DNA of 64,000 nucleotides from Calditrichales bacterium (GTDB lineage Bacteria > Calditrichota > Calditrichia > Calditrichales > J004): positions 256,001-320,000 of the forward strand of contig OZ254086.1 of NCBI GenBank assembly GCA_965267575.1, given 5' to 3'. Below are positions 28,959 to 46,288 of this stretch, piece by piece (within the stretch, counting starts at the first letter, position 1; every line of letters starts with the position of its first letter). The position numbers were made by a program, and so were the translations under genes. A model generated the notes under the pieces. The model saw nothing but the letters and a program-made list of their open reading frames with translations. It did not search any database and was not told where the DNA came from.

Positions 28959-29399
28959 ATCTTACCCCCATTAATCTTGATCATGATCCTGATCTTGTTC
29001 TTGATCAGAGATTCTTCAGGTCTTTTGTTTAACCAATCCACCCGGCAGGCAATATATTTGGAGTTGCCCAAAATGTAAAAAATAATTCAGCCGCGCTTTC
29101 AGCAGTTTCTTTTGGCTTCACTTTAACGGAAGGTTTTGTTAGAATAGAAATAATCTTTTTTTTACCGTCATTCTGAATTCATTTCAGGATCTCACCGCGG
29201 GGAGAAGATTCTGAAACAAGTTCAGAGTGACGTAATCAGCATCGCAACCGTGAAAGGCTTGCAAGCGACAAAACAGTTCCCCTCCGGGGAGGGGTTAGGG
29301 GTGGGTTTTTTCTTGCCCGGGAAAATTGATACCTGATCAGGAAACCCATCCCTAACCCTTCCCAAGAAGGGAACCGGCAGGTTGCCAAATCAAGATTGA

Positions 29400-29463
29400 C
29401 CTGAACACCTGAACACATGAAAACCTGAACACTAACACACTAACACCATAACACTTTAACACA
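29400..29463 (+). repeat. Degenerate 8-bp tandem array (AACAC core)
   Basis: CCTGAACA/CTAACACA-type units; inverted counterpart at 30460-30503. Confidence 0.8.
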
Positions 29464-29476
29464 TCACCGAGGAACT

Positions 29477-30457
29477 ATGAAACCAATCCGCTGGGGTATA
29501 CTGGCCACAGGCATCATCGCCCATGCCATGGCCGAAGCCCTCCATAACCGTGACGACGCCGACCTGATTGCCGTAGGCTCGCGCACGCTGGAAGCGGCGG
29601 ACGCTTTCGCCGACCGCTGGAACATTCCGCACCGCCACCCGAGCTACGCTTCGCTGGTGCAGGACCCGGATGTGGACGTGATCTACATCGCCACGCCGCA
29701 CAGCCACCATTACGATAACATGAAACTGTGCCTCAACGCCGGCAAGCATGTGCTCTGCGAAAAGGCCTTTACGCTGAATGCCGCCCAGGCCCGCGAATGC
29801 ACCGAACTGGCCAAAAGCAAAAACCTGTTCCTGATGGAGGCCATGTGGACGCGCTTTAACCCGGCTATCCTGCACACACGCAAACTGATCGACGAAGGCG
29901 CCATCGGCGAAGTGCGGCTGGTGCAGGCTGATTTCTGCATCAACCGCAAATTCGATCCGCAGCACCGCCTGTTCAATCCTGAATTGGGTGGCGGCGCCCT
30001 GCTGGACCTGGGCATCTACCCGCTCACGTTTGCCGACCTATGGCTTGGTCCACCCGACGAGATCCAGAGTCACGCCCATTTGGGTAAAACCGGTGTGGAT
30101 GAACTGGCAGCCATCACCCTGCGCTACAAAAGCGGCGCGTCGGCCCAGCTCAGCACATCGTCGCGCGTGGGCAAACCGATCGAAGGCTGGATTGTCGGCA
30201 CAAAGGGATCGATCCATGTGCAGCACATGATGCACCGCCCCGATACACTGACGCTGACACAGGAAGGCAGCGACCCGCAAGAAATCAAAATCCCCTACGA
30301 CGGCAACGGCTACATCCACGAGGCTTTGGAAGTCCACGCCTGCCTGCGCGCGGGCAAAACCGAAAGCAGCGTAATGCCCTGGAGCAAGACCATTGAAATG
30401 ATGGAGCTGATGGACAGCCTGCGCCGCGATTGGGGTGTACGCTACCCGGGGGAGTGA
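29477..30457 (+). CDS. Gfo/Idh/MocA-family oxidoreductase
   Basis: IRWGILATG.IA, IYIATPH, KHVLCEKAF, MEAMWTRF, GGGALLDLGIY. Confidence 0.92.
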   Translation: MKPIRWGILATGIIAHAMAEALHNRDDADLIAVGSRTLEAADAFADRWNIPHRHPSYASLVQDPDVDVIYIATPHSHHYDNMKLCLNAGKHVLCEKAFTLNAAQARECTELAKSKNLFLMEAMWTRFNPAILHTRKLIDEGAIGEVRLVQADFCINRKFDPQHRLFNPELGGGALLDLGIYPLTFADLWLGPPDEIQSHAHLGKTGVDELAAITLRYKSGASAQLSTSSRVGKPIEGWIVGTKGSIHVQHMMHRPDTLTLTQEGSDPQEIKIPYDGNGYIHEALEVHACLRAGKTESSVMPWSKTIEMMELMDSLRRDWGVRYPGE

Positions 30458-30459
30458 GA

Positions 30460-30503
30460 GTGTGCTAAGGTGTTAAGGTGTTAAGGTGTTATAGTGTTAA
30501 TGT
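30460..30503 (-). repeat. Degenerate 8-bp tandem array (GTGTTAAG)n
   Basis: GTGCTAAG GTGTTAAG GTGTTAAG GTGTTATA GTGTTAAT. Confidence 0.85.
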
Positions 30504-30546
30504 GCGTCCCACCCTGTCATCTCGAGCGGCCGATCCGGGGCCACGC

Positions 30547-31389
30547 TCATATATCCAATGAATCGGCCGGGCTTTTTATTTTATCGATGGCGCGGGATGA
30601 AACGTGGGTATAAACCTGTGTGGTCTCCAGGCGAACATGCCCCAGCAGTTCCTGGATAAAGCGAATATCGGTGCCATCATCCAGCAGATGTGTAGCAAAG
30701 CTGTGGCGCAGGGTATGCACGGTCGCTTTCTTTTTTATGCCTGCTTTTTGCAGTGCCTGTTTCATAATACTTTGCACGCTTTTATCCGAATAGCGGCCGC
30801 CTTTGGCACCTTCCACCAGGTAATCCTGCGGCTTATATTCTTTAAAGTAGGCACGCAACACGGCAAGGGTTTTCTCCGATAAAACCACATACCTGTCTTT
30901 TTTGCCCTTACCCTGCACCACGTGGATCTTCATGCGTCTGGAATCGATATCAGCAACTTTAAGGTTAAGCAGTTCGCTTAGTCTTAGTCCGGCGGAGTAG
31001 ATAAGCAGCAGGATGGTTTTATGTTTGAGGTTATTGGTTACGGTAAGCAGACGTTTTACCTCTTCTTTGGAGAGCACCACCGGCAATTTTTGCGGTTTTT
31101 TCATTTTAATGTTCAGGGCAGCCGGCACAGGTTTATTAAGAACTTTTTGATACAGGAAGCGGATAGAAGCGATGACTTGTTTCATCGATGAAAACGAATA
31201 TTTTCTTTTCGATTTACAGTGTAACAAATATTCTTCAATCAACATATCTGTCACTTCATCCACTTTTTTAGATGCTACAAATTCCAGAAACAAGGCTAAT
31301 GCTGAAAGATAATTTTTAATGGTTTGCTCAGAATAATTTGCTATGGTAAGTTTGCTCTCAAACGCGCTAAGTATGATTTGTCTTTTCAT
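30547..31389 (-). CDS. Tyrosine recombinase/integrase (SAM-like N-domain), putative cassette integrase lacking the IntI-specific insertion
   Basis: YSEQTIKNY; catalytic R (GLRLSE), K (GKGKKDR), HTLRH, LLGH, Y (TTQVYTH); about 280 aa; divergent from the cassette array. Confidence 0.92.
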   Translation of the reverse strand: MKRQIILSAFESKLTIANYSEQTIKNYLSALALFLEFVASKKVDEVTDMLIEEYLLHCKSKRKYSFSSMKQVIASIRFLYQKVLNKPVPAALNIKMKKPQKLPVVLSKEEVKRLLTVTNNLKHKTILLLIYSAGLRLSELLNLKVADIDSRRMKIHVVQGKGKKDRYVVLSEKTLAVLRAYFKEYKPQDYLVEGAKGGRYSDKSVQSIMKQALQKAGIKKKATVHTLRHSFATHLLDDGTDIRFIQELLGHVRLETTQVYTHVSSRAIDKIKSPADSLDI

Positions 31390-31470
31390 TTTTAACAAGA
31401 TATATTTCGTACTATAAGAAACTAAAACTAGTACATATTCGCGCTATACGCAATCGTATAGCAAGATGTT
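31390..31470 (+). mobile_element. attI-like primary recombination site (copy 1)
   Basis: Conserved with 38133-38213; contains hairpin GCTATACG-caat-CGTATAGC then AAGAT-GTT; similarity between the copies ends at GTTG. Confidence 0.75.
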
Positions 31471-31483
31471 GCCACACATATAA

Positions 31484-32326
31484 ATGAAGAACTTAACGAC
31501 ACCATTAGGACTATTTGGACTTGCTTACCTGATTTACGGGTTAGTAATGAATATTCGAATGTTTACAGAACAAATGTGGCCGACTTATCTGTTCTTCATT
31601 TCAATGGGTATTGGAGTTTTCTTCTTAGCCATAAATAAGTTGACCAAAAGACTTCCTAAGTTTCAATTTTGGCAAATAATAATCGGACTTCTTCCTGTGA
31701 CAGCTTTCTATCTACATATGAAAGTTTGGAATCAAACTCACCCGACTGAGATAGCTGAAAATAGTTTAACAGAAACAAATCACAACTATCATAATGGCGA
31801 CATAATTTTTCAAACGTCAAAGTCTAGCCAAAGTAAAGCCATACAATTAGCGACAAACTCCAAATACAGTCATATGGGAATCATTTACGAAAATGATGGG
31901 CAGTTTTTCGTTTATGAAGCAGTTAAACCCGTGAAATTGTCACCACTCTCAGAATGGATAAATCGTGGAGAAAATGGACATTACGTAATTAAACGACTTG
32001 AAAACGCTGACCAGCTCTTGACCAATTCGACCTTGACCAAAATGAAGCAAATTGGAGAGCAATTTAAAGGGAAACCATATGACATTTACTTTGAGTGGTC
32101 AGACGACAAAATCTATTGCTCTGAACTCGTTTGGAAAATTTACAAGCAAGCAACAGACATTGAAATCGGAGAACTTGAGCAACTATCAGACTTTGACTTA
32201 ACAAATGATATTGTGAAAGCTAAAATGAAAGAAAGATATGGAGACAGTATCCCAATGGACGAAAAAGTGATTTCTCCGGCTGCTATGTTCAATTCAGACA
32301 AACTCGTAACAGTCAAAACCAACTGA
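31484..32326 (+). CDS. YiiX/YebB-family permuted papain-like enzyme with N-terminal membrane domain
   Basis: GDIIFQTS.S.QS.AIQLAT.S.YSHMG, YCSELVWKIY; three N-terminal TM segments. Confidence 0.88.
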   Translation: MKNLTTPLGLFGLAYLIYGLVMNIRMFTEQMWPTYLFFISMGIGVFFLAINKLTKRLPKFQFWQIIIGLLPVTAFYLHMKVWNQTHPTEIAENSLTETNHNYHNGDIIFQTSKSSQSKAIQLATNSKYSHMGIIYENDGQFFVYEAVKPVKLSPLSEWINRGENGHYVIKRLENADQLLTNSTLTKMKQIGEQFKGKPYDIYFEWSDDKIYCSELVWKIYKQATDIEIGELEQLSDFDLTNDIVKAKMKERYGDSIPMDEKVISPAAMFNSDKLVTVKTN

Positions 32327-32328
32327 CA

Positions 32329-32679
32329 ATGAAAAAATGGGTTTTCAGAATATCGATTTTGCTCAACATAGCCTTACTAATTGGCTGGGGTTTAAGCAGT
32401 CTAAATAGACCTTCATACAAATTAGGCCGTTTAGAAAAGGATATTACAGTTGGCAACTTTATGGGAGACTCTCTCTTATTTACGTTACCAAAAGGACTGA
32501 CAGTAAGAAATGCTTCAGAGCGCGGACTAAATGCAATTGGACAGTTTGAAAATAAAAGATTTCAAATCGTAATTTCTTCAGATGATGAACTTGTAAATTA
32601 TGATTTACCACTTGACAGTTTAGGTCCGAATGGCAATTACTATTCGGCTGACTTTGACAAGTATAACAATGAAAAATAA
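32329..32679 (+). CDS. Hypothetical membrane-anchored protein
   Basis: ORF 2 nt after the upstream stop, N-terminal TM, ends just before the attC-like site. Confidence 0.7.
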   Translation: MKKWVFRISILLNIALLIGWGLSSLNRPSYKLGRLEKDITVGNFMGDSLLFTLPKGLTVRNASERGLNAIGQFENKRFQIVISSDDELVNYDLPLDSLGPNGNYYSADFDKYNNEK

Positions 32680-32682
32680 AAA

Positions 32683-32757
32683 ATACGTGTGGCAACAACG
32701 GCTATAGCACATGCCCTTCGGGACACGTGCCATAGCCAAACCGTTGTGCGTCACCCT
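32683..32757 (+). mobile_element. attC-like site 1
   Basis: AAC-aac-GGCTATAGCACATGCCC-ttc-GGGACACGTGCCATAGCC-aaacc-GTT. Confidence 0.8.
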
Positions 32758-32871
32758 GAAAACCCACCGCACATTTAACACATTTGGTTTTTTGCCGACA
32801 CAAAAGCCATCCCTAAAAAACCAAAAGAGCTAAATCACCCACCGCTGACAAAGACGAACTGTTAAAAACTA

Positions 32872-32913
32872 TATTTAAGAATTTGCTTAAATAAGAAACA
32901 ATTTGTATCTTTG
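32872..32913 (+). promoter_or_regulatory. Bacteroidota-type promoter (TTTG-N20-TATCTTTG) overlapped by an ArsR-type operator palindrome
   Basis: TTTG 32882-32885, TATCTTTG 32906-32913; TATTTAAG-N6-CTTAAATA 32872-32893; similar palindrome at 33990-34011. Confidence 0.7.
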
Positions 32914-32992
32914 CTGCGTTATTAAATCCTAAACAGGAAACCGCAAGGTTCAATCTGACTGATTAAAACAATTAAAAAAACAGATTAATATT

Positions 32993-33370
32993 ATGGAAAA
33001 CAATCAATCGTGTATCAGAGTGTTTGCCGACAAGGTTCAAATAGACAATTGTAGAGAAATACTTCAAACCAATGACAAGGCATTCAGCCAACTGAGTGGA
33101 CTTTTAGCATTGGCAGGAAACGAAGTAAGGTTGAAAATCTTATTTCTCTTAGAAGAAGAAAACGAGCTTTGTCCTTGCGACCTTTCAGACATTCTCGGAA
33201 TGAGCATCCCTGCCGTTTCGCAACACCTCAGAAAACTAAAAGACGGAAACGTCATTGAAGGAAGAAGAGAAGGACAGACCATTTTCTACTCTTTGAAACA
33301 AGAGCAACTGACTTTACTTCGACCATTTTTTAAACACATCATAAACAATTCAAAAAAGGAAACAGTATGA
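32993..33370 (+). CDS. ArsR/SmtB-family metalloregulator
   Basis: RLKILFLL..ELCPCDLSDIL.MS.PAVSQHLRKLK; first gene of the mer operon. Confidence 0.92.
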   Translation: MENNQSCIRVFADKVQIDNCREILQTNDKAFSQLSGLLALAGNEVRLKILFLLEEENELCPCDLSDILGMSIPAVSQHLRKLKDGNVIEGRREGQTIFYSLKQEQLTLLRPFFKHIINNSKKETV

Positions 33371-33972
33371 ACAAGAAAAACAACAGACTTGTCGGAGCGG
33401 GAGTACTTTCGGCAGTAGCAGCATCACTTTGCTGCATTACACCTGTATTGGCTCTTATTTCAGGAGCATCAGGCGTGGCATCTACATTTTCGTGGATGGA
33501 ACCAGCAAGACCTTATCTTATCGGTATCACCGTTTTGGTGTTAGGCTTTGCTTGGTATCAGAAACTCAAACCACGAACAGCCGAAGAAATCCAATGTGAT
33601 TGCGAAGATGACGAAAAGAAACCCTTTATGCAGACCAAAACATTTTTGGGAATTGTAACCGTGTTTGCAGCCTTGATGCTCGCTTTTCCAAACTATGCAC
33701 ATATTTTCTATCCTTCAAACGACAATAAGGAAGTTGTAATCGTCAATGCCTCTGACATCCAAACAGTAACTTTTGATGTAAAAGGAATGACTTGCACTGG
33801 TTGTGCTTCACACGTAGAAAATGACGTTAACAAATTACCAAGCATTGTTAAGGTAGATGCGATTTATGAAGAAGCGACTGCCAAAGTAGAATTTGACCAA
33901 ACTAAAGTGAGTGTTGCTCAAATTGAAGAAGCCATCAACGGTACAGGTTACAAAGTGGTTGGCAAGAAATAG
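33367..33972 (+). CDS. merTP: Mercuric transport protein, MerT-MerP fusion
   Basis: AASLCCITP TM Cys pair, cytoplasmic CDC, C-terminal HMA GMTCTGC. Confidence 0.9.
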   Translation: MNKKNNRLVGAGVLSAVAASLCCITPVLALISGASGVASTFSWMEPARPYLIGITVLVLGFAWYQKLKPRTAEEIQCDCEDDEKKPFMQTKTFLGIVTVFAALMLAFPNYAHIFYPSNDNKEVVIVNASDIQTVTFDVKGMTCTGCASHVENDVNKLPSIVKVDAIYEEATAKVEFDQTKVSVAQIEEAINGTGYKVVGKK

Positions 33973-34019
33973 TATTTTTTTGCCTCTCGTATTTAAGAAC
34001 TTAATTAAATAATTACGCA

Positions 34020-34382
34020 ATGAAAAAGAATAATTTGATTCTATTATGTGCTTTGTTCCTTATTCGAATTAGTCAGGTCAATGCTCAATGTTGCAAACCG
34101 ACTGACAATAAAGCACAAACAACAAGTTCGATCCAGCAAGAAGGAAAAACCCTGATAGTGAAAATCACGGGAATGACTTGTGCAGGTTGTTCCAACCATA
34201 TCTCAAATGCCCTCAAAGAAGTGGAGGGAATTATGTAACACAAAGTGGAATATCCGGGCGATTTGGCAATTATTCAATACGACCCGAAGAAAACAAATCC
34301 TGATGCTATCATCAAGGTTATTGAACAGACAGGCTATAAAGCCGAAATCATAAAAGAAACTCAAAAAAAGAAATCATTATGA
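34020..34382 (+). pseudogene. Secreted HMA (MerP-like) metal-binding protein interrupted by an in-frame TAA
   Basis: Signal peptide, GMTCAGC; TAA at 34236-34238; the same frame continues HKVEYPGDLAIIQYDP..IEQTGYKA to a TGA overlapping the merA ATG. Confidence 0.8.
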
Positions 34383-36031
34383 ACAAAGAAACCATAAAAC
34401 TTGACATCACAGGTATGACCTGCGACCACTGTGCCACAAGCATTGAAAAACTACTTTCTAAAAATGAAGGTGTAAAAGAAGCTAATGTGAGCTATCCAAA
34501 AGCCACTTGTGAATGTTCTTTTGACCCTGCCAAAACCAGCAAAGAAGAAATCATCAACACCATCAACGGCACGAAAAACTATCGTGTAAAAAGTGAAATC
34601 CCAGAAAATGGAAGCAGTGGCAAAAACCAATTTGACCTTATAATAATAGGTGGCGGTTCGGCTGCATTTTCGGCAGCTATCAAAGCGGAAAGTTTAGGTC
34701 TATCGACTTTAATGGTAAACGGTGGATTGGACTTTGGCGGGACTTGCGTCAATGTGGGTTGTGTACCTTCTAAAAACCTAATCCGTGCAGGTGAAACTGC
34801 TCATCACGCTACGCATTCCAACTTTGAAGGCATCAAACCAATAGGAGTTGACATTGATTTTGCTCAAATCATCAAAGACAAGAAAAAATTAGTAGCCACA
34901 CTTCAAGAGAAAAAATATATGGATGTGGTGAGCGATTTTGAAAACCTGACTATGTTAAAAGGTTGGGCAAAATTCAAAGACCCAAAAACCATTGTAGTGG
35001 ACGGCAAGGAATATAAAGCCATCAAATTTTTAATAGCCACGGGAGCTACTACCAACATCCCGACTATTGAAAGATTGGACAAAATTGACTATTTGACAAA
35101 TGTTTCTCTTTTCGATTTGGAAGAAAAACCCGAAAGCCTGACCATTATGGGAGCAGGTTACATCGGCTTGGAAATCGCAATGGCTTACAATCGTTTAGGC
35201 GTAAAAGTCCGCATCATTGAATTTACCGACCGAGTATTACGGACACAAACCCCCGACATCAGCGAAGCATTGGAAACCCAAATGCGAAAAGAAGGTATTG
35301 AAATCTTACCAAATTTCAGAGCCGTAAAATTCGAGAAACAAGGAAATGAAACCATCATTCACTGTAAATGTCCTGACGGTTCATTTACGCAAATAGTAGA
35401 AAATGGGAAGGTCGTAATTGCCACAGGAACAAAAGCCAATACAAACCAATTAGGAATAGAAAACATTGGTTTGGAACTCACCAAAAGCGGACATATCGCT
35501 GTAAATGAAAAGATGGAAACTAATCTATCCCACATTTACGCAGCAGGTGACGTAACCAACACCCCTGCATTTGTTTACACAGCCGCCTTTGAAGGAAAAA
35601 TAGCCATTGAAAATGCTTTTTCAGGAACAGAAAACAAAGCCGATTATTCCTCTTTACCTTGGGTAGTTTTTACTGACCCACAAGTTGCAGGTGCAGGTTT
35701 AGACGAAGCACAGGCAGAAGTCAAAGGCATTCCGTTTGAAGTTTCAAAATTGGAACTGAAAGACGTGCCAAGAGCAATTGCAGCAAATGACACAAGGGGA
35801 TTTATCAAACTCATTCGCAACACCGAAACGGACAAATTGATAGGAGCGAGAGTGGTCGCACCCGAAGGCGGAGAACTTATCCAACAATTAAGTATGGCAA
35901 TCAAATACGGAATAACGGTGAAAGACTTAGCAGACAGTTTCTACCCTTATTTGACTTTGGGAGAAGGCATAAAATTAGCAGCCATAACTTTCGGAAAAGA
36001 CGTATCGAAATTAAGTTGCTGTGCCAGTTAA
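34379..36031 (+). CDS. merA: Mercuric reductase
   Basis: N-terminal GMTCDHC, redox GGTCVNVGCVPSK, FYPYLT, C-terminal LSCCAS. Confidence 0.95.
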   Translation: MNKETIKLDITGMTCDHCATSIEKLLSKNEGVKEANVSYPKATCECSFDPAKTSKEEIINTINGTKNYRVKSEIPENGSSGKNQFDLIIIGGGSAAFSAAIKAESLGLSTLMVNGGLDFGGTCVNVGCVPSKNLIRAGETAHHATHSNFEGIKPIGVDIDFAQIIKDKKKLVATLQEKKYMDVVSDFENLTMLKGWAKFKDPKTIVVDGKEYKAIKFLIATGATTNIPTIERLDKIDYLTNVSLFDLEEKPESLTIMGAGYIGLEIAMAYNRLGVKVRIIEFTDRVLRTQTPDISEALETQMRKEGIEILPNFRAVKFEKQGNETIIHCKCPDGSFTQIVENGKVVIATGTKANTNQLGIENIGLELTKSGHIAVNEKMETNLSHIYAAGDVTNTPAFVYTAAFEGKIAIENAFSGTENKADYSSLPWVVFTDPQVAGAGLDEAQAEVKGIPFEVSKLELKDVPRAIAANDTRGFIKLIRNTETDKLIGARVVAPEGGELIQQLSMAIKYGITVKDLADSFYPYLTLGEGIKLAAITFGKDVSKLSCCAS

Positions 36032-36040
36032 TCCGACCCA

Positions 36041-36106
36041 AAGGCACACACTCTTGCAACTCGCACCAGCCAACGCTTGACCAAAAATTGCAAGAGAGAG
36101 TGCCTT
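36041..36106. other. Long imperfect hairpin after merA
   Basis: AAGGCACACACTCTTGCAA ... TTGCAAGAGAGAGTGCCTT. Confidence 0.6.
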
Positions 36107-36159
36107 CCCTACCCCAAAAAATCCTACCTTTGAAAATTGACTAAACCGACTTAAAATAA

Positions 36160-36299
36160 AGGGCGAACGCACAACATTGTGTATAAGCAATAGCGGGTGA
36201 AGTGGTAAATCGAAGGTCTGTGTCTTTTATAAACATTGTGCTAAACTGAAAGTTTTGTACTTTTAAATCCGCTACTGCTCATACACTTGACCGTTAAAC
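36160..36299 (+). mobile_element. attC-like site 2
   Basis: AAC-att-GTGTATAAGCAATAGCGG ... CCGCTACTGCTCATACAC-ttgacc-GTTAAAC. Confidence 0.8.
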
Positions 36300-36636
36300 T
36301 AAAATAAACAACCCAATCATATCCCCCTTCCCCCACACAACTTTCAATAAAATCCGTTATGCCGTCACGAACCGCCAGGGACATATGAATAATGCCGCGT
36401 TTAACCTTCCGGTCAGAACGGCAAAACCACACTGCTGACAGAATGATGCTAAAAGAAGCTGTCACTGGTTCCTCACGGGTGGCAAATCCTGAACCCACGG
36501 GCAACTCTTCCATTCGTAATTTTCACATTCCTAATTCGTAATTGAATACACTTGTATGTTTCCTGTGGCGCAGATATTTTCGGTTTAATTAAATAGCCCA
36601 TAACTACAGGCCGGCTACACGGAAAGCATTCTCATC

Positions 36637-37629
36637 ATGTCCGAAGAAAATAATCTTATGAAAGCCTTTAGATTTAAGAAATACGGGTTGCCCACTGTGC
36701 TTGAGATTGAAGAAGTTGCAAAACCGGTACCGGGCGACGAGGAGGTGCTGGTGAAAATCCACGCCGCTGCCATCAATGACTCGGATTGGGGACTGGTAAG
36801 GGGCAAGCCATTTGTGATTCGTCTGTTCTACGGTCTTAAAAAACCAAAAATAAATATTCCGGGCGTGGATATTTCAGGCAAAGTAGAAGCGCTGGGCAGT
36901 AACGTGAATTCCTTCAAAGTCGGTGATGAGATTTACTGCGACTTGTCGGAATGCGGCTTTGGCGGGTTTGCCGAATATGTGTGTGTTCCGGAAAAAGTAT
37001 TATCCAAAAAGCCTTCCAACATTAGTTTTAATGATGCCGCTGCTCTGCCCCACGCCAGTCTGCTGGCACTTCAGGGACTGGTGGAAAAGGGAAAGGTCAA
37101 ATCCGGACAGAGTGTCCTCATCAACGGTGCCGGGGGAGGTGTGGGCACCCTGGGACTGCAAATCTTAAAATCATACGAGCTCAAAACTACAGGCGTCGAC
37201 AGCGACGAAAAACTTGATATGATGAAAGCGTTGGGATTTGACAACGTGATCGATTATAAAAAGGTGGACTTCACCGAAACCGGAGAAAAGTATGACCTGA
37301 TCCTTGATGCAAAATCAAACAGGTCCGTATTTAAATACGCTCGCTCGCTCAAAAAGAACGGCACTTACGTCACAGTCGGTGGATCGATGTACCGGTTGTT
37401 CGAAATACTATTGCTGGGGTCACTCATTTCGCTTTTCAGCAGCAAGAAGCTGAGCGTACTGGGCCTTAAACCCAATAAGGGACTGGACCGGATTTCCGAT
37501 CTTGTGGAAAAGGGACAAATAAAACCTGTTGTTGACGGCCCCTATAAGTTTGATGAAATCCCGCGGCTGCTTCAATACTTTGGTGAAGGCAGGCACAAGG
37601 GAAAGATTGTGGTTGAAATAAAAAAATAA
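36637..37629 (+). CDS. NAD(P)-dependent alcohol dehydrogenase/quinone reductase (MDR family)
   Basis: EVLVKIHAAAIND.D, GGFAEYV, VLINGAGGGVG, GKIVV. Confidence 0.88.
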   Translation: MSEENNLMKAFRFKKYGLPTVLEIEEVAKPVPGDEEVLVKIHAAAINDSDWGLVRGKPFVIRLFYGLKKPKINIPGVDISGKVEALGSNVNSFKVGDEIYCDLSECGFGGFAEYVCVPEKVLSKKPSNISFNDAAALPHASLLALQGLVEKGKVKSGQSVLINGAGGGVGTLGLQILKSYELKTTGVDSDEKLDMMKALGFDNVIDYKKVDFTETGEKYDLILDAKSNRSVFKYARSLKKNGTYVTVGGSMYRLFEILLLGSLISLFSSKKLSVLGLKPNKGLDRISDLVEKGQIKPVVDGPYKFDEIPRLLQYFGEGRHKGKIVVEIKK

Positions 37630-37653
37630 TGTCACAAAAAACGATATACTCCG

Positions 37654-38085
37654 ATGAATTATCCAGGCTTAAATACCTTCCCTGTTAAAACCTTCGATAA
37701 AATCCGCTATGCCGATACGGACTGCCAGGGGCATGTGAACAATGCCGCTTTTTTGACCTTCCTGGAAACGGGCCGCGTGGAGATTTTATACAACCCCGAA
37801 AACGCCCTTCTCGCGCAAGGGGCCAGCTTTGTCATTGCCTCTCTGAAGCTGGATTTTCTGAAAGAGATCAACTGGCCCGGCCGGGTGGATATCGGCACGG
37901 GGATTTCCAAAATCGGCAACAGCTCGATCACCTTTTACCAGCAGCTGTTTCAAAACGGAGCCTGTGTCGCAAGTGCTGAAACGGTTATTGTGCAGGTAGA
38001 TGACAATAATGGCAAAAGCAAGCCTTTAACGGAGGGCGCAAAGAAAAGGCTGGCCGCTTGGCTGTTGGCCGAGAGCAAAGCCTGA
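37654..38085 (+). CDS. Acyl-CoA thioesterase (4HBT/YbgC hot-dog fold)
   Basis: IRYADTDCQGHVNNA.F..FLETGR. Confidence 0.9.
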   Translation: MNYPGLNTFPVKTFDKIRYADTDCQGHVNNAAFLTFLETGRVEILYNPENALLAQGASFVIASLKLDFLKEINWPGRVDIGTGISKIGNSSITFYQQLFQNGACVASAETVIVQVDDNNGKSKPLTEGAKKRLAAWLLAESKA

Positions 38086-38101
38086 ATGGGTAGAGTAATC
38101 T

Positions 38102-38142
38102 TCAAACGCATCAGGTATGATTTGTTTTTTATTTTTAACAAG
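38102..38142 (-). pseudogene. Frameshifted 5' remnant of a second cassette integrase
   Basis: Aligns to the integrase start (LLKMKRQIILSAFE) with ATG>ATA and a 1-bp deletion. Confidence 0.7.
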
Positions 38143-38213
38143 ATATATTCCGTGTCACACGAAACTAAAACCAATACATATTCGCGTTATACGCATTCGT
38201 ATAGCAAGACGTT
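38133..38213 (+). mobile_element. attI-like primary site (copy 2)
   Basis: TTTTAACAAGATATATT..GAAACTAAAAC.A.TACATATTCGCG.TATACGCA.TCGTATAGCAAGA.GTT shared with 31390-31470. Confidence 0.75.
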
Positions 38214-38279
38214 GGGGGCAATGTAGAAACGAACGACACAGAACAAGGTAAGCCGACAAATTAGAAGTAAATTAGCAGC

Positions 38280-39578
38280 ATGGAAAATGAAGTACAAGAA
38301 CCTCAATTAGAACTCTTCAAAAGAGAGACAAATAATAACGGAAAGGCAGATTTGACTTCAACCTTTGCAGACAACATGAAACTGCCTATTCATAGGTGGT
38401 ACAGGTATACAGCAGGCTTCTCAGGACCTTGGGTAAGAGAATTGATTGAAAGTGAAAATGGACAAAACGTACTCGACCCTTTCGGTGGCTCGGGTACAGT
38501 GATGCTTGAAGGTGAATACGCAGGAATTAATTCAATTGGAATTGAAGCTCATCCTTACGTTTATAGAATCGCAAAGGCAAAACTATCTTGGCAAATAGAC
38601 CCTAAAGATTTCAAAGAATCTGCAAAACAGCTACTCGAAAAAGCTAAGTCAAAGAGAATCGATAAAAAGGAGTATCCTAAACTTATTGAGAAGTGCTATC
38701 CCATTGAAATACTCGAAAAACTTGAAGCATTAAAAGTAGCTTGGATCGAATCAACAGATGACACAATTCTCAAAGAACTCAATTGGTTTGTTATCACAGC
38801 CATTCTCAGAACAACTTCGCCAGTTGGAACTGCACAATGGCAATATATTCAACCTTCAAAGACCAAAGGAAAAGTCATTGATGTGTTTCATGCTTTTGAA
38901 GCTAAGGTGTACGAAATGGCTCAGGACATGCAAAATATGCAAAGACGTTTTCCCAACGCAACAAAGAGCGAAATTTTCATGGAAGATGCCAGACATATGC
39001 CTTCCGTTGCAGACAATTGGGCCGATCTTGTAATAACGTCTCCACCTTACGCTAACAATTATGACTATGCAGATGCGACAAGACTTGAAATGACTTTTTG
39101 GGGAGACATTGATGGATGGGGAGATCTGCAAGAGAAGGTTAGAAAATTTCTTGTAACTGCTTGCACACAACATGTTACTAGCTTAAAGGATAAAGCGTCC
39201 GAGATATTAGAATCGCCATTGTTGACACCAATTAGACAAGAGATTACTGATGTGTTTAATGAATTGGCTGAAACAAGGTTAACTCGGGGTGGCAAAAAGA
39301 ATTATCACTTAATGATAATTGCATATTTCAAAGACCTTGCGGAAGTATTTCACGAGTTAAGAAGAGTAACAAAGAAGGGATGTAAGGTATGTTTTGTCGT
39401 TGGCGACAGTGCTCCATACGGAGTTTATGTGCCAGTCGATAAATGGTTAGGTGAACTTGCAGTTTATGCAGGTTTTGAATCATACGAATTTGAAAAACTT
39501 CGTGATCGTAATACAAAATGGAAAAACAGAAAACATAGAGTCCCTTTGCATGAAGGAAGACTTTGGATAAAAGGATAA
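38280..39578 (+). CDS. Amino-DNA methyltransferase (probably N4-cytosine)
   Basis: HRWYRYTAGFS, motif I VLDPFGGSGT, motif IV DLVITSPPY. Confidence 0.88.
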   Translation: MENEVQEPQLELFKRETNNNGKADLTSTFADNMKLPIHRWYRYTAGFSGPWVRELIESENGQNVLDPFGGSGTVMLEGEYAGINSIGIEAHPYVYRIAKAKLSWQIDPKDFKESAKQLLEKAKSKRIDKKEYPKLIEKCYPIEILEKLEALKVAWIESTDDTILKELNWFVITAILRTTSPVGTAQWQYIQPSKTKGKVIDVFHAFEAKVYEMAQDMQNMQRRFPNATKSEIFMEDARHMPSVADNWADLVITSPPYANNYDYADATRLEMTFWGDIDGWGDLQEKVRKFLVTACTQHVTSLKDKASEILESPLLTPIRQEITDVFNELAETRLTRGGKKNYHLMIIAYFKDLAEVFHELRRVTKKGCKVCFVVGDSAPYGVYVPVDKWLGELAVYAGFESYEFEKLRDRNTKWKNRKHRVPLHEGRLWIKG

Positions 39579-40456
39579 TGGCAAAATCACCAGCACATAA
39601 ATGGGGGCAAATAATAGGAGACTTTCTTGAAGAAGTCTTTGCTACTGAACTTTCAAAGTTTGCCCGAAAACATAAGTTATACTTAGACACTCAAGGCGAC
39701 CGTCCGGCTCGATCAGGGAAAAAGGTGAGTTGGATTGACACATTTGAAAATTCTCATGACTTGGATTTTGTTCTTGAAAGAAATGGAACGAAAAACAAAA
39801 TTGGAGACCCAGTTGCATTCATTGAAAGTGCTTGGAGAAGGTACACCAAGCATTCAAGAAATAAAGCTCAAGAAATCCAAGGTGCTATTTTACCATTAGT
39901 AGCTACACATAAGAATTTTGCTCCTTTTATGGGAGTTATGTTAGCAGGAGAATTTACAGGCGGAGCATTGAATCAATTAAGATCATTAGGCTTCCATGTT
40001 CTTTACTTCCCTTATGATTTGATTCTTCAGGCATATAAAAAGTATGGCATAGATGCAAGCACTGAAGAAAACACGACTGAGAAAGATTTTCAAAATAAAA
40101 TTGACAAGTGGGAGAAATTTGATGATAAAAAGAAGTTGGCCAATTACCTTCTGAGACTGAATAAGGTTGAAGTAGAAACTTTTTTTGAAAGTCTTGAAAA
40201 GGCCGTATCAAGGTATATCGAATCAATTAGTGTTTTGCCTTTGCATGGAGCTTCAAATACTTTGACAACGGTTAAAGAAGCGATAGACTTTATTGAAAGC
40301 TACCAAAACGAAAATGGAAGCCTTCCTGTTTTGAAATACGAAATTGTAGTTCGATACAATAACAAGGACAAGGTTGAAGGTATTTTCAATTCAAAAGAAT
40401 CTGCAATTGAGTTTCTTGAGTCGTATGCTGCTCCTAAACCTAAGGACAAAAAATAA
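39578..40456 (+). CDS. Putative type II restriction endonuclease (PD-(D/E)xK-like)
   Basis: TAATG coupling to the MTase; E..HDLDFVLE..AFIESAWRRYTKHSRNK acidic motif. Confidence 0.7.
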   Translation: MAKSPAHKWGQIIGDFLEEVFATELSKFARKHKLYLDTQGDRPARSGKKVSWIDTFENSHDLDFVLERNGTKNKIGDPVAFIESAWRRYTKHSRNKAQEIQGAILPLVATHKNFAPFMGVMLAGEFTGGALNQLRSLGFHVLYFPYDLILQAYKKYGIDASTEENTTEKDFQNKIDKWEKFDDKKKLANYLLRLNKVEVETFFESLEKAVSRYIESISVLPLHGASNTLTTVKEAIDFIESYQNENGSLPVLKYEIVVRYNNKDKVEGIFNSKESAIEFLESYAAPKPKDKK

Positions 40457-40460
40457 AAAA

Positions 40461-40605
40461 ACACTGCCCCCAACAATGGGTATAAAACATAGGGCGGATA
40501 GTGGTTTCCGCAAATTTCGGGTTCTTAGCAAGCTTAGTCTCGGTGGACAAGTTCGCAGCTCCGAAATGCCCTACGTTTCATACCCGAGACCGTTGTGGCT
40601 AATTT
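40461..40605 (+). mobile_element. attC-like site 3
   Basis: AAC-aat-GGGTATAAAACATAGGGC ... GCCCTACGTTTCATACCC-gagacc-GTT. Confidence 0.8.
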
Positions 40606-41670
40606 AAAACCTGTCGTTCCAGAATTTTATGACAAAGAAAAAAAAGACCTTAATAATCAGAATCCTATTGTTCAGTGGAACGGCAATCTCAATGTTTTTT
40701 GTACCGTGGATATTGGTAAAGGCTTGGATTTTACCCCTACCTGATACAATTCAAGAACAAGTAGATGAAGCAATTGGGCATGGGTTTGATGGAATGGTTG
40801 TCTACATAGACCAAGCGGGAAAACAACCCCAATTTTATACAGGCGGGTGGAAAGATAGAATAAAGAAAATTCCAGCCGACCCAAATTCGCTATTCAAAAT
40901 TGCCAGCATAAGCAAACTTTATACAGCAGTGGCGGCCACCAAGTTGGTCAAAGAAAACCGCTTGTCATTTGACAAAAAACTAACAGATTATCTACCGGAA
41001 CTAAAAGGCAGAATAGAAAATGCTGAAGAAATCACTTTGAAAATGATGATTCAACATCGGTCCGGGATTCCTAATTATACAGATAATCCAGAGTATTGGT
41101 TAGATGAACAAGAGAATGGTAAAAATGCCTTAGATTTTGCCTTAGATTTACCTGCCAGCTTTAAACCAGACAAGGACTATGAATATTCTAACACCAATTA
41201 TTTGTTGCTGCGCAAGATTATGGATAAGGTTTTAGGATACAATCATAACGAATATATCAAAGAAAAAATTTTGAGACCCCTTAACCTTAAAAACACCTTT
41301 TTTTCAATTAACGAAGTGGATTTAGAAGATGTGATGAGTGGTTACTATGTGGGGTATAACGAAGATTTTAAAGCTCGTGAATATGGAATGCTGGCTACAG
41401 CAGAAGATGCTGGTATTTTCTTGCGAGCCTTAAACGAGGGTTCGGTGTTTGACGAGGGAGAAAAGGAAATCTATCCTTATGAATATAATCATGGAGGTTT
41501 GGTAGTCGGCTATCAAAGCCTTGCAGAATATCACCAAGATATTGATGCTGTAATTGTTCAATTTATCAACACTACGGATTTTGAAGGTTATGAATGGAAT
41601 TTATCGGAAATTACAATTAACCGAATTGTGAAAATTTTAAGAAAGAAAAACTAGCCACAACACGGTGTGT
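40592..41670 (+). mobile_element. Gene cassette 4 (serine hydrolase) with truncated attC-like site
   Basis: Starts GTTGTGGCTAATTT; ends AAACTAGCCACAAC (13/14 reverse complement, contains the gene's TAG); only ACGGTGT of the hairpin remains. Confidence 0.7.
40629..41654 (+). CDS. Serine hydrolase, beta-lactamase/D-Ala-D-Ala peptidase fold
   Basis: IASISK (SxxK), YSNTNY (YxN), NHGG. Confidence 0.88.
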   Translation: MTKKKKTLIIRILLFSGTAISMFFVPWILVKAWILPLPDTIQEQVDEAIGHGFDGMVVYIDQAGKQPQFYTGGWKDRIKKIPADPNSLFKIASISKLYTAVAATKLVKENRLSFDKKLTDYLPELKGRIENAEEITLKMMIQHRSGIPNYTDNPEYWLDEQENGKNALDFALDLPASFKPDKDYEYSNTNYLLLRKIMDKVLGYNHNEYIKEKILRPLNLKNTFFSINEVDLEDVMSGYYVGYNEDFKAREYGMLATAEDAGIFLRALNEGSVFDEGEKEIYPYEYNHGGLVVGYQSLAEYHQDIDAVIVQFINTTDFEGYEWNLSEITINRIVKILRKKN

Positions 41671-41795
41671 GTAATTTTGTCTACCTTATGAAAAAGCAAA
41701 AATTAATTATTGTACTACTTTTTGGACTTTCAAATTTATCTATCATTGAAAATTCAATGTCAGTTCGTAGAAGCCCCGATAAAACATAGTAGAAA

Positions 41796-43598
41796 ATGAG
41801 CACCCACATACCCATATCATCCAATAAATCCATTGCGGTTCTCCCCTTTGTTAATATGAGTGCCGACCCAGATAATGAATACTTCAGCGATGGGATTACC
41901 GAAGAAATAATCAACGCCCTAACCACCGTGAAGGGCTTGAAAGTCATTGCCCGCACATCCTCTTTTGCGTTTAAGAATAAAAATATAGATGTGCGAACCA
42001 TTGGTGATCTGTTAGGAGTAAGTACGGTTTTGGAGGGGAGCATCCGGAAAGTCAAAAACAGGGTACGCATTACAGCGCAGTTAATCAGTACGAATGACGG
42101 CACTCACTTCTGGTCGAAAAATTTTGATCGGGATTTGGAGGACATATTTGCACTACAAGATGAAATAAGTTTAAACATTGCAGACCAGATCCGGGAAAAT
42201 TTTGGTCATCTCCATATTCGGGAACATCTGATTGAAGCGCCTACACAAAATATGGAGGCCTACAACCTTTATCTTAAAGGTCGCTACCATCATTTAATGT
42301 GGGACGGACAAGGAATCGCAAATGCAATAGAACTCTATGAACAGTGTGTAGCGATAGACCCCTCATTTGCTTTGCCTTACTTTGGTTTGGCTTATTGTTA
42401 TGCAATGGCCGGATCCTGGGGAAATAATAAAGGCTTATTACAGATGTCAGAAGAGGATCTCAGCAAAGGTTTTAATTTAGACAAACAATCCTACGTAGGG
42501 TATTTCAGTAAAGCGACATTGTCCTTTTGGGGGCAATGGGATTTCATCAAGGGGCATAAATTTTTTCAAAAATCAATAGAGCTGAATCCATCCTATACGG
42601 AAGCAGAAGAAGGTTTATGCGAATTGTATACAGCAGTAGGTTATTTTGAAAAAGCGCACCGGCATACTGATAATATTTTAAAAATAAATCCTTTATCTCC
42701 GAACCATTATTTTACCAAAGCAAATATTTATTATCTAAACGAAGACTACACGAAAGCTTTAGAATGTATAGAGACCTCTTTGAGCATCAATCCGGATTTC
42801 ACACATTCCATCGCATTAAAACAACTTTGTTTAATTCTTTCGAAAGATTACGAAAAGCTAAATGACTTCTTAGGTCAAACCCCTTTGGCCGAGAGACCAG
42901 AAGAATGCAGAGTATTGTACAAGTTGGTCAATCCGGAAGAAAAGATCGATGTTGATATCAGCAGGGTTAGCTTAATGATAAAAGAAGATTCCGGGGGAAC
43001 GCTTTTTCCCTGGCAACTTTTTTTGTTGGTCTATTTGGACAAACACGAAATGGCATTGGACTTTTTGGAAGAAAACATCAGGATGCGTACCGGTCAAATC
43101 ATAAACTTTATGAATATTCCGTTCCTTAAACCCTTGCGCCGGCATAAGCGATTTCAAGATTTAGTACAAGCTGCTTTCGGGGTAGAACTCTTGCCACCTA
43201 ATCCCGAAAAACAAATACGAATTGACCCTCCCAAGACATTGATGTCAGTTACTGAAATCGACAAGCTTTTAGAAATATTAGGAAAGGGAATGAAGGAAGA
43301 AAAGTGGTTTCAAAAGCCATCTTTAACTTTACGCGAGCTGGCCGAAAACCTGACTATTAGCAGTAACCAGCTTTCCTGGTTGCTAAATGAACAAATTGGC
43401 CAAAATTTCAATGAATACATCAATAGTTTTCGTTTGGAGAACTTCAAAGAGAAGGCCCTAAATCCTGCCAATAGCCACCTTACCCTTTTAGCGCTAGCTT
43501 ATGAAAGCGGCTTCACTTCTAAATCGGTATTCAATACCTACTTTAAAAAAACCGAAGGGATGACACCGAAAGCCTGGCTGCGGTCTAATCAAATTTAA
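41796..43598 (+). CDS. AraC-family regulator with N-terminal TolB-like domain and TPRs
   Basis: SIAVLPFVNMS..NEYFSDGITEEIIN, TPR region, C-terminal LAYESGF.SKS.FN.YFKK..GMTP. Confidence 0.88.
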   Translation: MSTHIPISSNKSIAVLPFVNMSADPDNEYFSDGITEEIINALTTVKGLKVIARTSSFAFKNKNIDVRTIGDLLGVSTVLEGSIRKVKNRVRITAQLISTNDGTHFWSKNFDRDLEDIFALQDEISLNIADQIRENFGHLHIREHLIEAPTQNMEAYNLYLKGRYHHLMWDGQGIANAIELYEQCVAIDPSFALPYFGLAYCYAMAGSWGNNKGLLQMSEEDLSKGFNLDKQSYVGYFSKATLSFWGQWDFIKGHKFFQKSIELNPSYTEAEEGLCELYTAVGYFEKAHRHTDNILKINPLSPNHYFTKANIYYLNEDYTKALECIETSLSINPDFTHSIALKQLCLILSKDYEKLNDFLGQTPLAERPEECRVLYKLVNPEEKIDVDISRVSLMIKEDSGGTLFPWQLFLLVYLDKHEMALDFLEENIRMRTGQIINFMNIPFLKPLRRHKRFQDLVQAAFGVELLPPNPEKQIRIDPPKTLMSVTEIDKLLEILGKGMKEEKWFQKPSLTLRELAENLTISSNQLSWLLNEQIGQNFNEYINSFRLENFKEKALNPANSHLTLLALAYESGFTSKSVFNTYFKKTEGMTPKAWLRSNQI

Positions 43599-43813
43599 GC
43601 TGGTTTAAAAGGTGTCAAATCTCACTATAAAGTCCGAAATTACATTTCAGGACGATTCATCTTTCTTTTAACTCCACTTTTGCATCCATCAATTCAGTAA
43701 AGCAGAGTAAATAATCATCGGATGATGATTTCTTTCCTCTTTATCAGATGAACTATCGATAACGGGAGGGGCTTTGTAGAAATCGGAATTTCAAAAAAAG
43801 GAGTCGTATTATC

Positions 43814-44464
43814 ATGAAAAGTCTATTTACAATTTTTTTGTTTTTTTGCACACTTAGTGCTTTTGCTCAGGTTAAATCACCGGAGAGTAATGCAACTGAA
43901 GTTGCCCATGAGTACAGGGTAAGTTTACCTTATTTTGTTCCGGAAGGGCTTATCGTGGATTCCTGGGACGATCGAACAAGTACACGACACTTAGAGCTTC
44001 ATATAAAACGTAACCTGGATAATAAAAATATCATAGGTTTGAAGTTTACCTCCTGGCGATTGTTTCAACCAATGGGAATCACATGGTGGGATGGTCTTTT
44101 AGATAAGCTCGAGACAGAAAGTGAATTCTATCCAGGACATGTGCGAGAAATAGGAATAGGTATAACATACCAGCGTATGCTATGGAAAGGACTATTTGCA
44201 ACTGTTGAAGTTCTACCGCAATTTCAAACCTACTTGGATCTAGACGGTAAAAAAATTGGAAATGATTTTAAACTTTATACGTCGTATCATCTTGGCTACC
44301 ATATCGCATTTGGTGAGGAAAAACGATTTTTTATAGAACCACAAATTAATTGTATGTACTGGATGTTTGACAACAATGCTCCTGATGGATTTAAGCAGCT
44401 GGATGATAAATGGAGAAACTACTTTCTTTTTGAGCCGCAGATTTACTTAGGGATAACATTTTAA
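43814..44464 (+). CDS. Hypothetical exported/outer-membrane protein
   Basis: GGAG RBS, signal peptide, aromatic-rich, C-terminal F. Confidence 0.7.
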   Translation: MKSLFTIFLFFCTLSAFAQVKSPESNATEVAHEYRVSLPYFVPEGLIVDSWDDRTSTRHLELHIKRNLDNKNIIGLKFTSWRLFQPMGITWWDGLLDKLETESEFYPGHVREIGIGITYQRMLWKGLFATVEVLPQFQTYLDLDGKKIGNDFKLYTSYHLGYHIAFGEEKRFFIEPQINCMYWMFDNNAPDGFKQLDDKWRNYFLFEPQIYLGITF

Positions 44465-44493
44465 ACTTAGTCTAACCAACCAGGATTCATAAT

Positions 44494-45108
44494 ATGAAAA
44501 CAATTTTAACAGTATTATCTATCTGCATTTTCCTAAGCAGTAATGTAGCTGCTCAAGTAGAAGAAGAATTTTCTTCATCCAAATCACATTCCCCACTCGG
44601 TGCATTCAAGCATTCTGTTAATATATGTCCTATCGCCCCGGTTTTCGGATTTTATTCGATTAACTATGAATACCTGATTAGTCCGCAGGATGGAATTGTT
44701 GCTCGCTTCGACTATGAAGATGTTCCTGAGACTTACACGGACGCTTCGATAGAGTCAAGTGGTATAGGTTTTACAGTGAATTACCGGAGGTATTTGTATG
44801 GGGAAATAAATTCTATATTTCTTGGAGCTTACACCAGATATAGAATCTACGAAGGAAGTGGTAAGCTAAATTCAAAAAAGTTCGATCTTACCCTAAAATC
44901 TTTTTCTATTGGACTGAACGCAGGAAAACGTTGGGTCTGGAATAGTGGTTTTAATATAGTCTTTTCATTGGGCTATGGAATTGATATAAATAACAGGGAG
45001 GCAAATCCGACTGACAACTCTATTGAATCGATACTTGACCAATTTGAAAAGGAATATGAATTCATGTCCCCGTTTTATGGAGAATTCTCAATCGGTTATA
45101 CATTCTAA
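44494..45108 (+). CDS. Outer-membrane beta-barrel protein (DUF3575-like)
   Basis: Signal peptide; YSINYEY, GKRWVW.SGF, SIGYTF C-terminus. Confidence 0.65.
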   Translation: MKTILTVLSICIFLSSNVAAQVEEEFSSSKSHSPLGAFKHSVNICPIAPVFGFYSINYEYLISPQDGIVARFDYEDVPETYTDASIESSGIGFTVNYRRYLYGEINSIFLGAYTRYRIYEGSGKLNSKKFDLTLKSFSIGLNAGKRWVWNSGFNIVFSLGYGIDINNREANPTDNSIESILDQFEKEYEFMSPFYGEFSIGYTF

Positions 45109-45282
45109 CTCATAAAATCCAATCTTATGGACAAAAAACTACAGAAAGCCGCCTTTTTAAAAATTTGTACATTACCTTTTGCGCGGATATTTTCACTTAA
45201 ACAAAATCCTTAATCCGCGAGGGGATGCACGCCATACGCGCCATACACGCATAGTCCCCATAAAATGGCAGGAAGCATCAGA

Positions 45283-46224: not shown

Positions 46225-46288
46225 AAGCTAAATGCTGTGCCCAAATCCGAATAGAAACTTTATAAAACTTTACTAATCAAAATGATTT

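Follow-up and report, generated by a model that had tools for sequence, protein, structure and literature searches.

The 64,000-nt stretch of DNA analysed here (positions 256,001 to 320,000 of contig OZ254086.1 in the Calditrichales bacterium assembly GCA_965267575.1; hereafter the window) carries a mercury-resistance (mer) operon enclosed in what appears to be a mobile gene cassette of an integron-like array. GC content, which is about 0.52 and host-like across the window, drops to approximately 0.35-0.44 in an island between 30.5 and 49.3 kb, and all unshadowed open reading frames (ORFs) of at least 100 amino acids from 31484 to 49233 lie on the plus strand. The island is headed by a tyrosine recombinase gene that points away from an attI-like site and from the cassettes behind it, the second of which holds the mer genes (Table 1; all positions are those of the window).

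Family scans locate all four genes of the order arsR-merTP-HMA-merA that a first-pass annotation of this sequence had proposed for 32743-36295. The predicted MerA protein combines an N-terminal heavy-metal-associated (HMA) domain (PF00403, residues 8-65) with the GGTCVNVGC redox motif (CxxxxC) and a C-terminal pair of cysteines. That annotation had also called the operon complete, a description that has to be withdrawn for the window copy because its merP-like gene is interrupted: the in-frame TAA falls after 72 of some 120 codons. The same gene is unbroken, at 118-119 amino acids, in all nine of the other cassette copies checked, and the copy at locus L057 gives a full-length HMA match. A second peculiarity of the window copy lies in the arsR leader, where 49 nt (32941-32989) are inserted that all nine other aligned copies lack. 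To judge from the families to which the products belong, an ArsR/SmtB repressor would sit on a palindrome over its own promoter and be released by Hg(II), MerTP would bring Hg(II) into the cell and MerA would turn it into volatile Hg(0), the merP-like periplasmic binder being presumably knocked out here.

Inspection of the region upstream of arsR reveals a candidate for such a control site. The palindrome TATTTAAG-N6-CTTAAATA at 32872-32893 overlaps a TTTG at 32882-32885, and twenty bases beyond this overlap stands a TAnnTTTG-type box, TATCTTTG (32906-32913); the arrangement fits the Bacteroidota promoter consensus. The palindrome pattern occurs once in the window and is matched in 62 loci of a comparison set made up of the best 80 of 512 candidate loci that encode relatives of MerA, compared by blastn with window positions 30400-38400. 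Palindrome and box stand in the same place just upstream of the operon in about 60 of the 80, and this context is kept even in operons whose DNA is 64-75% identical to that of the window. Conservation across such divergent operons therefore provides a strong phylogenetic footprint for a putative operator and promoter inside the cassette, in agreement with the earlier proposal that the unit brings its own regulation. Control by ArsR instead of MerR, which the same proposal had treated as unusual, is ordinary for the group, as mer operons of Bacteroidetes are described as encoding ArsR-like regulators (Boyd and Barkay 2012, PMC3466566). At the other end of the operon, a hairpin directly after the merA stop codon (the B element) accompanies merA in more distant operons (for instance L075, L076, L087 and L089, with homology to 36112) and also occurs elsewhere in relatives.

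The unit that surrounds these genes has matched ends, as had been claimed, GTT junctions lying at 32743-32745 and 36293-36295; if the crossover is placed after the G of GTT, the cassette proper measures 3,550 nt and its limits are corrected to 32744-36293. The left GTT closes the 63-nt attC-like hairpin of the preceding cassette (32687-32749), and the right GTT closes the mer cassette's own attC-like site, whose long imperfect stem is formed by GTGTATAAGCAATAGCGGGT and ATCCGCTACTGCTCATACAC. The R'' box of this site, ACGCACAAC, is the reverse complement of the start of the mer cassette, GTTGTGCGT, at 9 of 9 bases. The same relation between R'' box and own start holds in all four window cassettes that could be read: at 10 of 10 bases in cassette 1 (GTGTGGCAAC, 32687-32696, against the start GTTGCCACAC, 31468-31477), at 10 of 10 in a 2.4-kb methylase cassette (TGCCCCCAAC against GTTGGGGGCA) and at 10 of 10 in a beta-lactamase-fold cassette (start GTTGTGGCTA against R'' TAGCCACAAC), the hairpin of which stops after its first arm (41652-41675); one cassette of locus L037 follows it too. 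Such complementarity is the footprint expected if each unit was once a circle recombined at G^TT (^ marks a crossover or junction point). The layout of the sites, xxxxAAC followed by a 3-nt spacer, the stem, a 5-6-nt spacer and GTT, mirrors that of classical attC sites. When 16 related sites, drawn from different cassettes and genomes, are aligned, 15 stem pairs are predicted and compensatory changes are seen in five of them. Three complete sites lie in the window (32687-32749, 36167-36299 and 40465-40598). A simple scanner for AAC...stem...GTT is noisy, returning 32 + 26 matches in the window, and lends weak support; with a score of at least 9 required, it picks out 4 of 14 left flanks, compared with 19 of 496 GTTs (3.8%) in the background. 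A scan of 30400-49600 against Rfam (E<=1) returned no family match.

Table 1. Features of the mer cassette and of the array in which it lies. The ^ sign marks a junction or crossover point.
Feature	Positions	Strand	Description
Tyrosine recombinase gene, Xer/IntI-like	30547-31398	-	283 aa; PF00589 (Phage_integrase), PF13495 (SAM-like); divergent from cassettes
attI-like site 1	31343-31470	+	inverted repeat GCTATACG-CAAT-CGTATAGC; junction GATG^TTGCCACAC; overlaps first recombinase codons
Cassette 1	31469-32743	+	C92-family amidase-like gene (31484-32326) and 116-aa ORF; ends in attC-like site 1 (32687-32749)
mer cassette	32744-36293	+	3,550 nt, G^TT crossover assumed; homology elsewhere starts and stops at GTT junctions
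A element	32776-32832	+	conserved hairpin motif in cassette 5' part; TAaCACATTTGG ... CCAAAAGAGCTA
Putative ArsR-type operator and overlapping Bacteroidota-type promoter	32872-32913	+	palindrome, TTTG, TAnnTTTG-type box
arsR/smtB-family regulator	32993-33370	+	125 aa; ELCPCDL motif; PF01022; NF033788 82.5 bits (cut-off 55)
merTP fusion transporter	33367-33972	+	201 aa; NF033556 (MerTP_fusion equivalog) 290.9 bits (cut-off 180)
merP-like periplasmic HMA gene	34020-34382	+	in-frame TAA 34236-34238; frame continues to 34382
merA mercuric reductase	34379-36031	+	550 aa; TIGR02053 512 bits (cut-off 454)
B element	36041-36106	+	hairpin with 19-bp stem directly after merA stop
attC-like site of mer cassette	36167-36299	+	133-nt hairpin closed by right GTT; R'' ACGCACAAC; R' GTTAAAC
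Second attI-like site with recombinase stub	38102-38213	+	85% identical to 31358-31471; junction 38211-38213
Methylase cassette	38212-40592	+	N6/N4 DNA methylase gene (38280-39578) and 297-aa ORF; ends in attC-like site 40465-40598

Comparison with other genomes, sampled at one per species, shows that these ends delimit what is shared. The same left junction is found in 13 of the 80 loci and the right junction too in 12 of those 13, with unrelated flanks. In ten loci a single continuous blastn match runs from 32725-32743 to 36284-36296; these are L027 (Algoriphagus yeomjeoni), L028 (Flagellimonas oceanensis), L029 (Sinomicrobium oceani), L030, L031, L033 (Empedobacter falsenii), L035 (Chryseobacterium aquaticum), L037 (Flagellimonas meridianipacifica), L041 and L057 (Kaistella palustris). 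Three more (L038, L045 and L095) share the left end and give split matches, L044 shares the right end only, and the remaining 66 have the operon or parts of it in common and nothing more. At base level the junctions read flank^GTTGTGCGTCACCC ... CATACACnnnACCGTT^flank, identity ending at ACCGTT^ and the flanks differing. Among metagenome contigs, 15 contain the exact first 45 nt of the cassette; they have 14 distinct left flanks, all of which break at ^GTT, and 12 run on into the mer operator while three are cut by contig ends. Public sequencing runs (24 listed) were considered as assembled contigs only, and four of them (X1, X21, X5 and X22) were compared with 29500-49499: in X5 one contig ends at 36295, and X21 and X22, which share a species label, gave no alignment, a result that carries no weight. 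The first-pass annotation had named homologous operons extending past the boundaries without a breakpoint as the observation that would speak against a cassette. Because homology does not cross the ends in either genomes or metagenomes, stopping instead at the GTT boundaries between unrelated flanks, the cassette reading survives this test.

The aligned copies, comprising the window and nine others (L031, whose right end is cut, and the more divergent L038, L045 and L095 were left out), further indicate how the unit has spread. Five of the cassettes (L027, L028, L029, L041 and L057) form a cluster with 99.9-100% identity across 3,501 bp, the named hosts of which come from three families in two classes: Algoriphagus (Cytophagia, Cyclobacteriaceae), Kaistella (Flavobacteriia, Weeksellaceae) and Sinomicrobium (Flavobacteriia, Flavobacteriaceae). 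The window cassette is 92.7% identical to the cluster. When the flanks of 12 loci are compared with one another by blastn, they yield only short attC-sized matches and one common right neighbour, in L028 and L029, which is 92.7% identical over 632 nt against 99.9% for the mer cassettes themselves; this contrast speaks for the cassette, and not a larger element, as the unit of transfer. In the Algoriphagus yeomjeoni genome, the mer cassette is preceded on its left by an attC-like site (L027:4908-5040) that is a genus-wide repeat; at least 13 of the 60 other genomes contain copies 88-95% identical to it, most of which end within a few bases of the cassette boundary. The mer cassette's own site belongs to another family, which is what an imported cassette would be expected to show. 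A search of the same 60 Algoriphagus genomes with the L027 neighbourhood found no empty site, that is, no flank-to-flank junction without the cassette. In loci L024, L026, L032, L034, L036 and others, the operon is 85-92% identical between the operator and the stop codon of merA and has no cassette ends; since the 3' half of the A element is kept in some of these unframed loci, at least part of them look like eroded cassettes. These comparisons show the mer cassette to be mobile as a unit. The earlier proposal of a multi-gene, self-regulated mobile cassette is thus upheld by a discrete unit with a sharp left GTT break in 13 of 80 loci and 15 metagenome contigs, and that of a different route of spread for mer by near-identical copies in unrelated neighbourhoods, with no ORF for a recombinase or a transposase found within the unit itself.

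Examination of the cassette's 5' part brings in a different account of this mobility. An A element of approximately 75 nt stands 15-50 nt past the GTT start in many different cassettes of several genomes (for example at L019:13328-13404, L018:14630-14705 and L027:8590-8668). In its hairpin, which was defined by eye with the pairs counted afterwards and was not recovered by RNAalifold, the share of cells that pair is 92%, and two of the pairs have compensatory changes, in six cells, a cell count reached by none of 500 shuffles. Together with the attC-like site on the right, the A element gives the unit a subterminal hairpin at each end, as in a non-autonomous single-stranded DNA element of the IS200/IS605 or palindrome-associated transposable element (PATE) style that is moved by a transposase encoded elsewhere and inserts beside a short target motif. 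Insertion always beside GTT would fit such an element, as would the four of nine other host genomes with no Xer-like recombinase on the cassette contig. Yet some cassettes, such as cassette 1 and the methylase cassette, have no A element and follow the same boundary rule; the complementarity of 9-10 nt between R'' box and start is a signature of attC, and several genomes have a head-to-tail series of cassettes that follows a tyrosine recombinase and an attI-like site. On balance we consider the single-stranded DNA element very improbable. As a separate observation, the loop of the B element and that of most aligned A-element copies have GCCAACGCT in common, the window A element reading GCCATCCCT at this place.

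The recombinase that heads the array provides the second point at which known systems have to be weighed. At the first junction between attI-like site and cassette, GTT lies at 31468-31470, and 5 of the 12 relatives that were searched have both recombinase and attI-like site, with a nucleotide identity of 73-85%. Of 56 genomes sampled from the phylum setting, 11 encode homologues at E<=1e-55, the window's own genome included. Upstream of the mer cassette, L057, L037 and L027 each have a homologue 43-49% identical to the recombinase, which is directly adjacent and co-oriented in L057, divergent in L037 and co-oriented in L027. The L041 homologue, which has an internal TGA, is found 18 kb upstream of the cassette and heads 15 of 15 co-oriented ORFs. 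At E<=1e-43, every one of the nine other mer-cassette genomes searched contains a homologue. Enzyme and cassette are thus linked by association only.

With its cassettes all facing one way behind an attI-like site and its recombinase gene facing the other, the platform has the layout of a classical integron. The unit might accordingly be a standard integron cassette on which a canonical IntI acts, as happens in class 1 integrons or in the chromosomal integrons of Vibrio. The attC-like sites, with their AAC...GTT boxes, a spacer resembling the unpaired central spacer (UCS) and starts that complement their own R'', would suit this account, and the recombinase aligns to IntI4 of Vibrio (2a3v) with 152.9 bits. 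The alignment, however, covers IntI4 residues 4-178 and 245-318 only: at the IntI-specific domain, recombinase residues 182-206 (24) face IntI4 residues 178-245 (67), so that approximately 43 residues are missing exactly there. The additional domain is described as the defining feature of IntI (PMC9668308). Against the integron-integrase model TIGR02249 the protein scores 221.5 bits, below the cut-off of 265, in a match broken into two stretches; its score of 240 bits against NF040815 (cut-off 220) does not define its family, because the genome's ordinary Xer genes also score. Its closest solved relative is XerA (5hxy), to which the catalytic R, H-x-x-R, H and Y align in an intact ORF. Elsewhere in the window's genome, the matches to this protein are only 26-35% identical and are Xer-like or other integrases. 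A canonical IntI is therefore hardly credible as the enzyme of this cassette, and the platform is not a classical integron; on the kind of platform the first-pass annotation is not supported.

To the right of cassette 1 and the mer cassette the array becomes irregular. A fragment of a thioesterase pseudogene (36304-36464) is 51% identical over 41 residues to the intact thioesterase gene at 37654-38085, which follows a gene of the zinc/alcohol-dehydrogenase family within 36637-38085; GC content in the parts of 36304-38085 is 0.44-0.48. Among 12 relatives, no conservation of this stretch was found except for one weak match of 64% inside the dehydrogenase gene (G001). Then comes the second attI-like site, whose recombinase stub holds only about the first 55-60 nt of the gene; the stub-plus-attI form recurs with almost the same left end in two relatives, L129 (G007:C77) and L131 (G008:C330). 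The stub contains a direct-repeat copy of the attI core arm, and a functional attI may therefore extend into the first recombinase codons. Two candidate boundaries were rejected: 36296-38213 does not form a regular cassette ending in the stub-plus-attI, as its start, GTTAAACTAA, is not complementary to the ..TTCAAAC box of the stub, and a GTTTAAC at about 36399 lies inside the thioesterase pseudogene fragment and was judged a coincidence. Further right, the methylase and the 297-aa ORF of the methylase cassette may form a restriction-modification pair; the 297-aa protein has no Pfam or NCBIfam match. The beta-lactamase-fold cassette follows, and beyond it, within 40593-49233, lie 7.5 kb of low-GC, co-oriented genes (TPR/AraC, DUF3575, a dehydrogenase, a second beta-lactamase-fold protein, DUF2200 and DUF1801) among which no recognisable hairpin sites were found. 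On the opposite side of the island, around host genes, three short intergenic repeats (29166-29236, 29389-29462 and 30457-30507) have dozens of copies elsewhere in the same genome, 74-97% identical, and look like dispersed elements of the repetitive extragenic palindrome (REP) or miniature inverted-repeat transposable element (MITE) type.

These irregularities, namely the thioesterase pseudogene, the second recombinase stub and the truncated attC at 41652, are what would be expected of a fixed relic, in which a past insertion is recorded in an array that is now sedentary or decaying while the active cassette lineage is elsewhere. The divergence of the window copy from the near-identical cluster, the nonsense codon in its merP-like gene and its leader insertion point the same way. 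The recombinase ORF, on the other side, is intact, with catalytic positions that align to XerA, and the mer cassette retains its two junctions and its attC-like hairpin undamaged. We regard the relic as unlikely; it concerns present activity only and is compatible with the cassette interpretation.

Taken together, we consider it highly probable that 32744-36293 is a mobile cassette of a Bacteroidota integron-like gene-capture system, the cargo of which is a narrow-spectrum mer operon of the Bacteroidota type. The unit would move whole. Site-specific recombination would act on the G^TT in its attC-like hairpin and probably yield a circular intermediate, the joint of which would read ...CATACACnnnACCG^TTGTGCGTCACCC..., for insertion into an attI-like site or into the attC-like site that ends another cassette. 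Catalysis is likely to be by the Xer-like tyrosine recombinase found at the head of such arrays, here encoded at 30547-31398. On this reading the window copy is an older, diverged and slightly decayed member of the family, and a nearly identical version has spread recently between classes.

Several observations weigh against this interpretation. The recombinase is devoid of the domain by which integron integrases read folded attC, which makes its action on these hairpins putative, and a homologue is absent from the cassette's own contig in four of nine other genomes (L029, L030, L033 and L035). Direct traces of movement were likewise missing: the circle or tandem junction pattern had no match in metagenome contigs, the assembled contigs of X1, X21, X5 and X22 contained no credible excision joint, and plasmid and phage collections gave no match to the cassette at the megablast level. 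One joint in X1, from 36196 to 40543, was set aside as a repeat bridge between attC-like sites because it rests on 26 letters on one side and has very high depth. No regular cassette follows on the right of the mer cassette, where 1.8 kb of pseudogene and enzyme genes lead up to the attI copy. Finally, the nonsense codon and the leader insertion mean that the response of the window copy to Hg may be altered.

Mercury resistance is usually traced through MerR-controlled transposons of the Tn21/Tn501 type and through plasmids. A regulated mer operon that travels as a 3.5-kb cassette represents a route of spread without classical transposons, and transposon-based surveys, like those that rely on models of IntI and attC, would probably overlook it. 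The new elements are the mer cargo carried by an integron-like system and the breadth of its spread; no paper describing a mer operon as a gene cassette was found in the literature library searched. The integron-like system of Bacteroidota thereby gains a selectable and easily assayed cargo that makes its mechanism testable, in particular the handling of hairpin sites by a recombinase without the IntI domain. More tentatively, and as a possibility that we hold to be somewhat doubtful, the data could reflect an active cassette-exchange network of Bacteroidota, parallel to integrons, in which short Xer-like recombinases move whole regulated operons, mercury resistance included, between classes within a reusable frame consisting of a 5' GTT box and A hairpin, the cargo and a 3' attC-like hairpin. 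Were this so, the framed and unframed versions of one mer operon would offer a concrete case for how gene cassettes arise.

As a mer operon, the cargo resembles others of the Bacteroidota type in gene order and families, in the ArsR/SmtB regulator and MerTP fusion that precede merA and in the operator and promoter kept in the loci described above; it differs in being framed by cassette ends and in the broken extra merP of the window copy. The same set of genes (ArsR-family regulator, MerTP fusion, extra MerP and MerA) was reportedly found by Allen et al. in 2013 in Tenacibaculum discolor 9A5. With mer transposons of the Tn21/Tn501 type the unit shares merT/P and merA functions and horizontal spread. 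None of the hallmarks of those transposons (MerR, a transposase or resolvase, terminal inverted repeats) was found in 32743-36295, where ORFs of at least 50 amino acids were checked, and mobility here would instead proceed by site-specific cassette recombination.

By description, the closest system in print is the rAID-1 array of Bacteroidales, in which a XerD-like tyrosine recombinase is reported to head a low-GC, co-oriented array with repeated intergenic motifs 'reminiscent of integrons' (Ross et al.; bioRxiv 10.1101/471110). A tyrosine recombinase at the head of a low-GC, co-oriented array with repeated intergenic motifs in Bacteroidota may be common to both, as far as the published descriptions go. 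The criteria for rAID-1 are a recombinase with 44% or higher identity to the reference from B. fragilis NCTC 9343 and at least two co-oriented downstream genes with a GC content of at most 41% and repeated intergenic motifs; set beside the array part of these, the window has a GC content of 0.35-0.41 over 31-36 kb, ORFs that are all on the plus strand from 31484 to 49233, a divergent recombinase and three full hairpin sites. The cargo of rAID-1 is described as short orphan immunity genes of gut Bacteroidales behind a recombinase that is 5' and co-oriented, whereas here a mer operon, a methylase cassette and enzymes lie in an environmental lineage behind a divergent recombinase. The Pfam families of the island (mer genes, methylase, dehydrogenases, beta-lactamase-fold proteins and others) are likewise not those of orphan immunity genes. 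Folded sites, cassette boundaries and cassette exchange do not figure in the passages on rAID-1 that were consulted, and the main text of a 2025 follow-up does not use the words 'integron', 'excision', 'circular' or 'hairpin' (PMC12247911).

Classical integrons, which the IntegronFinder 2.0 article describes as only sparse in Bacteroidetes (PMC9024848), share the greater part of the architecture seen here. In both, a recombinase gene adjoins an attI or attI-like site to which the first cassette is joined at GTT, and co-oriented cassettes end in imperfect hairpins with AAC...GTT boxes whose R'' complements the cassette's own start. In both, the host genus has a homogeneous attC family and the travelling cassette brings its own, and cassettes move as discrete units between contexts. 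The present system differs in a recombinase without the additional domain of IntI, in a recombinase gene that is divergent in some arrays and co-oriented in others, in the A element at the 5' end of many cassettes, and in cassettes that are large, multi-gene and self-regulated, as exemplified by the four genes and 3.55 kb of the mer cassette and by the 2.4-kb methylase cassette.

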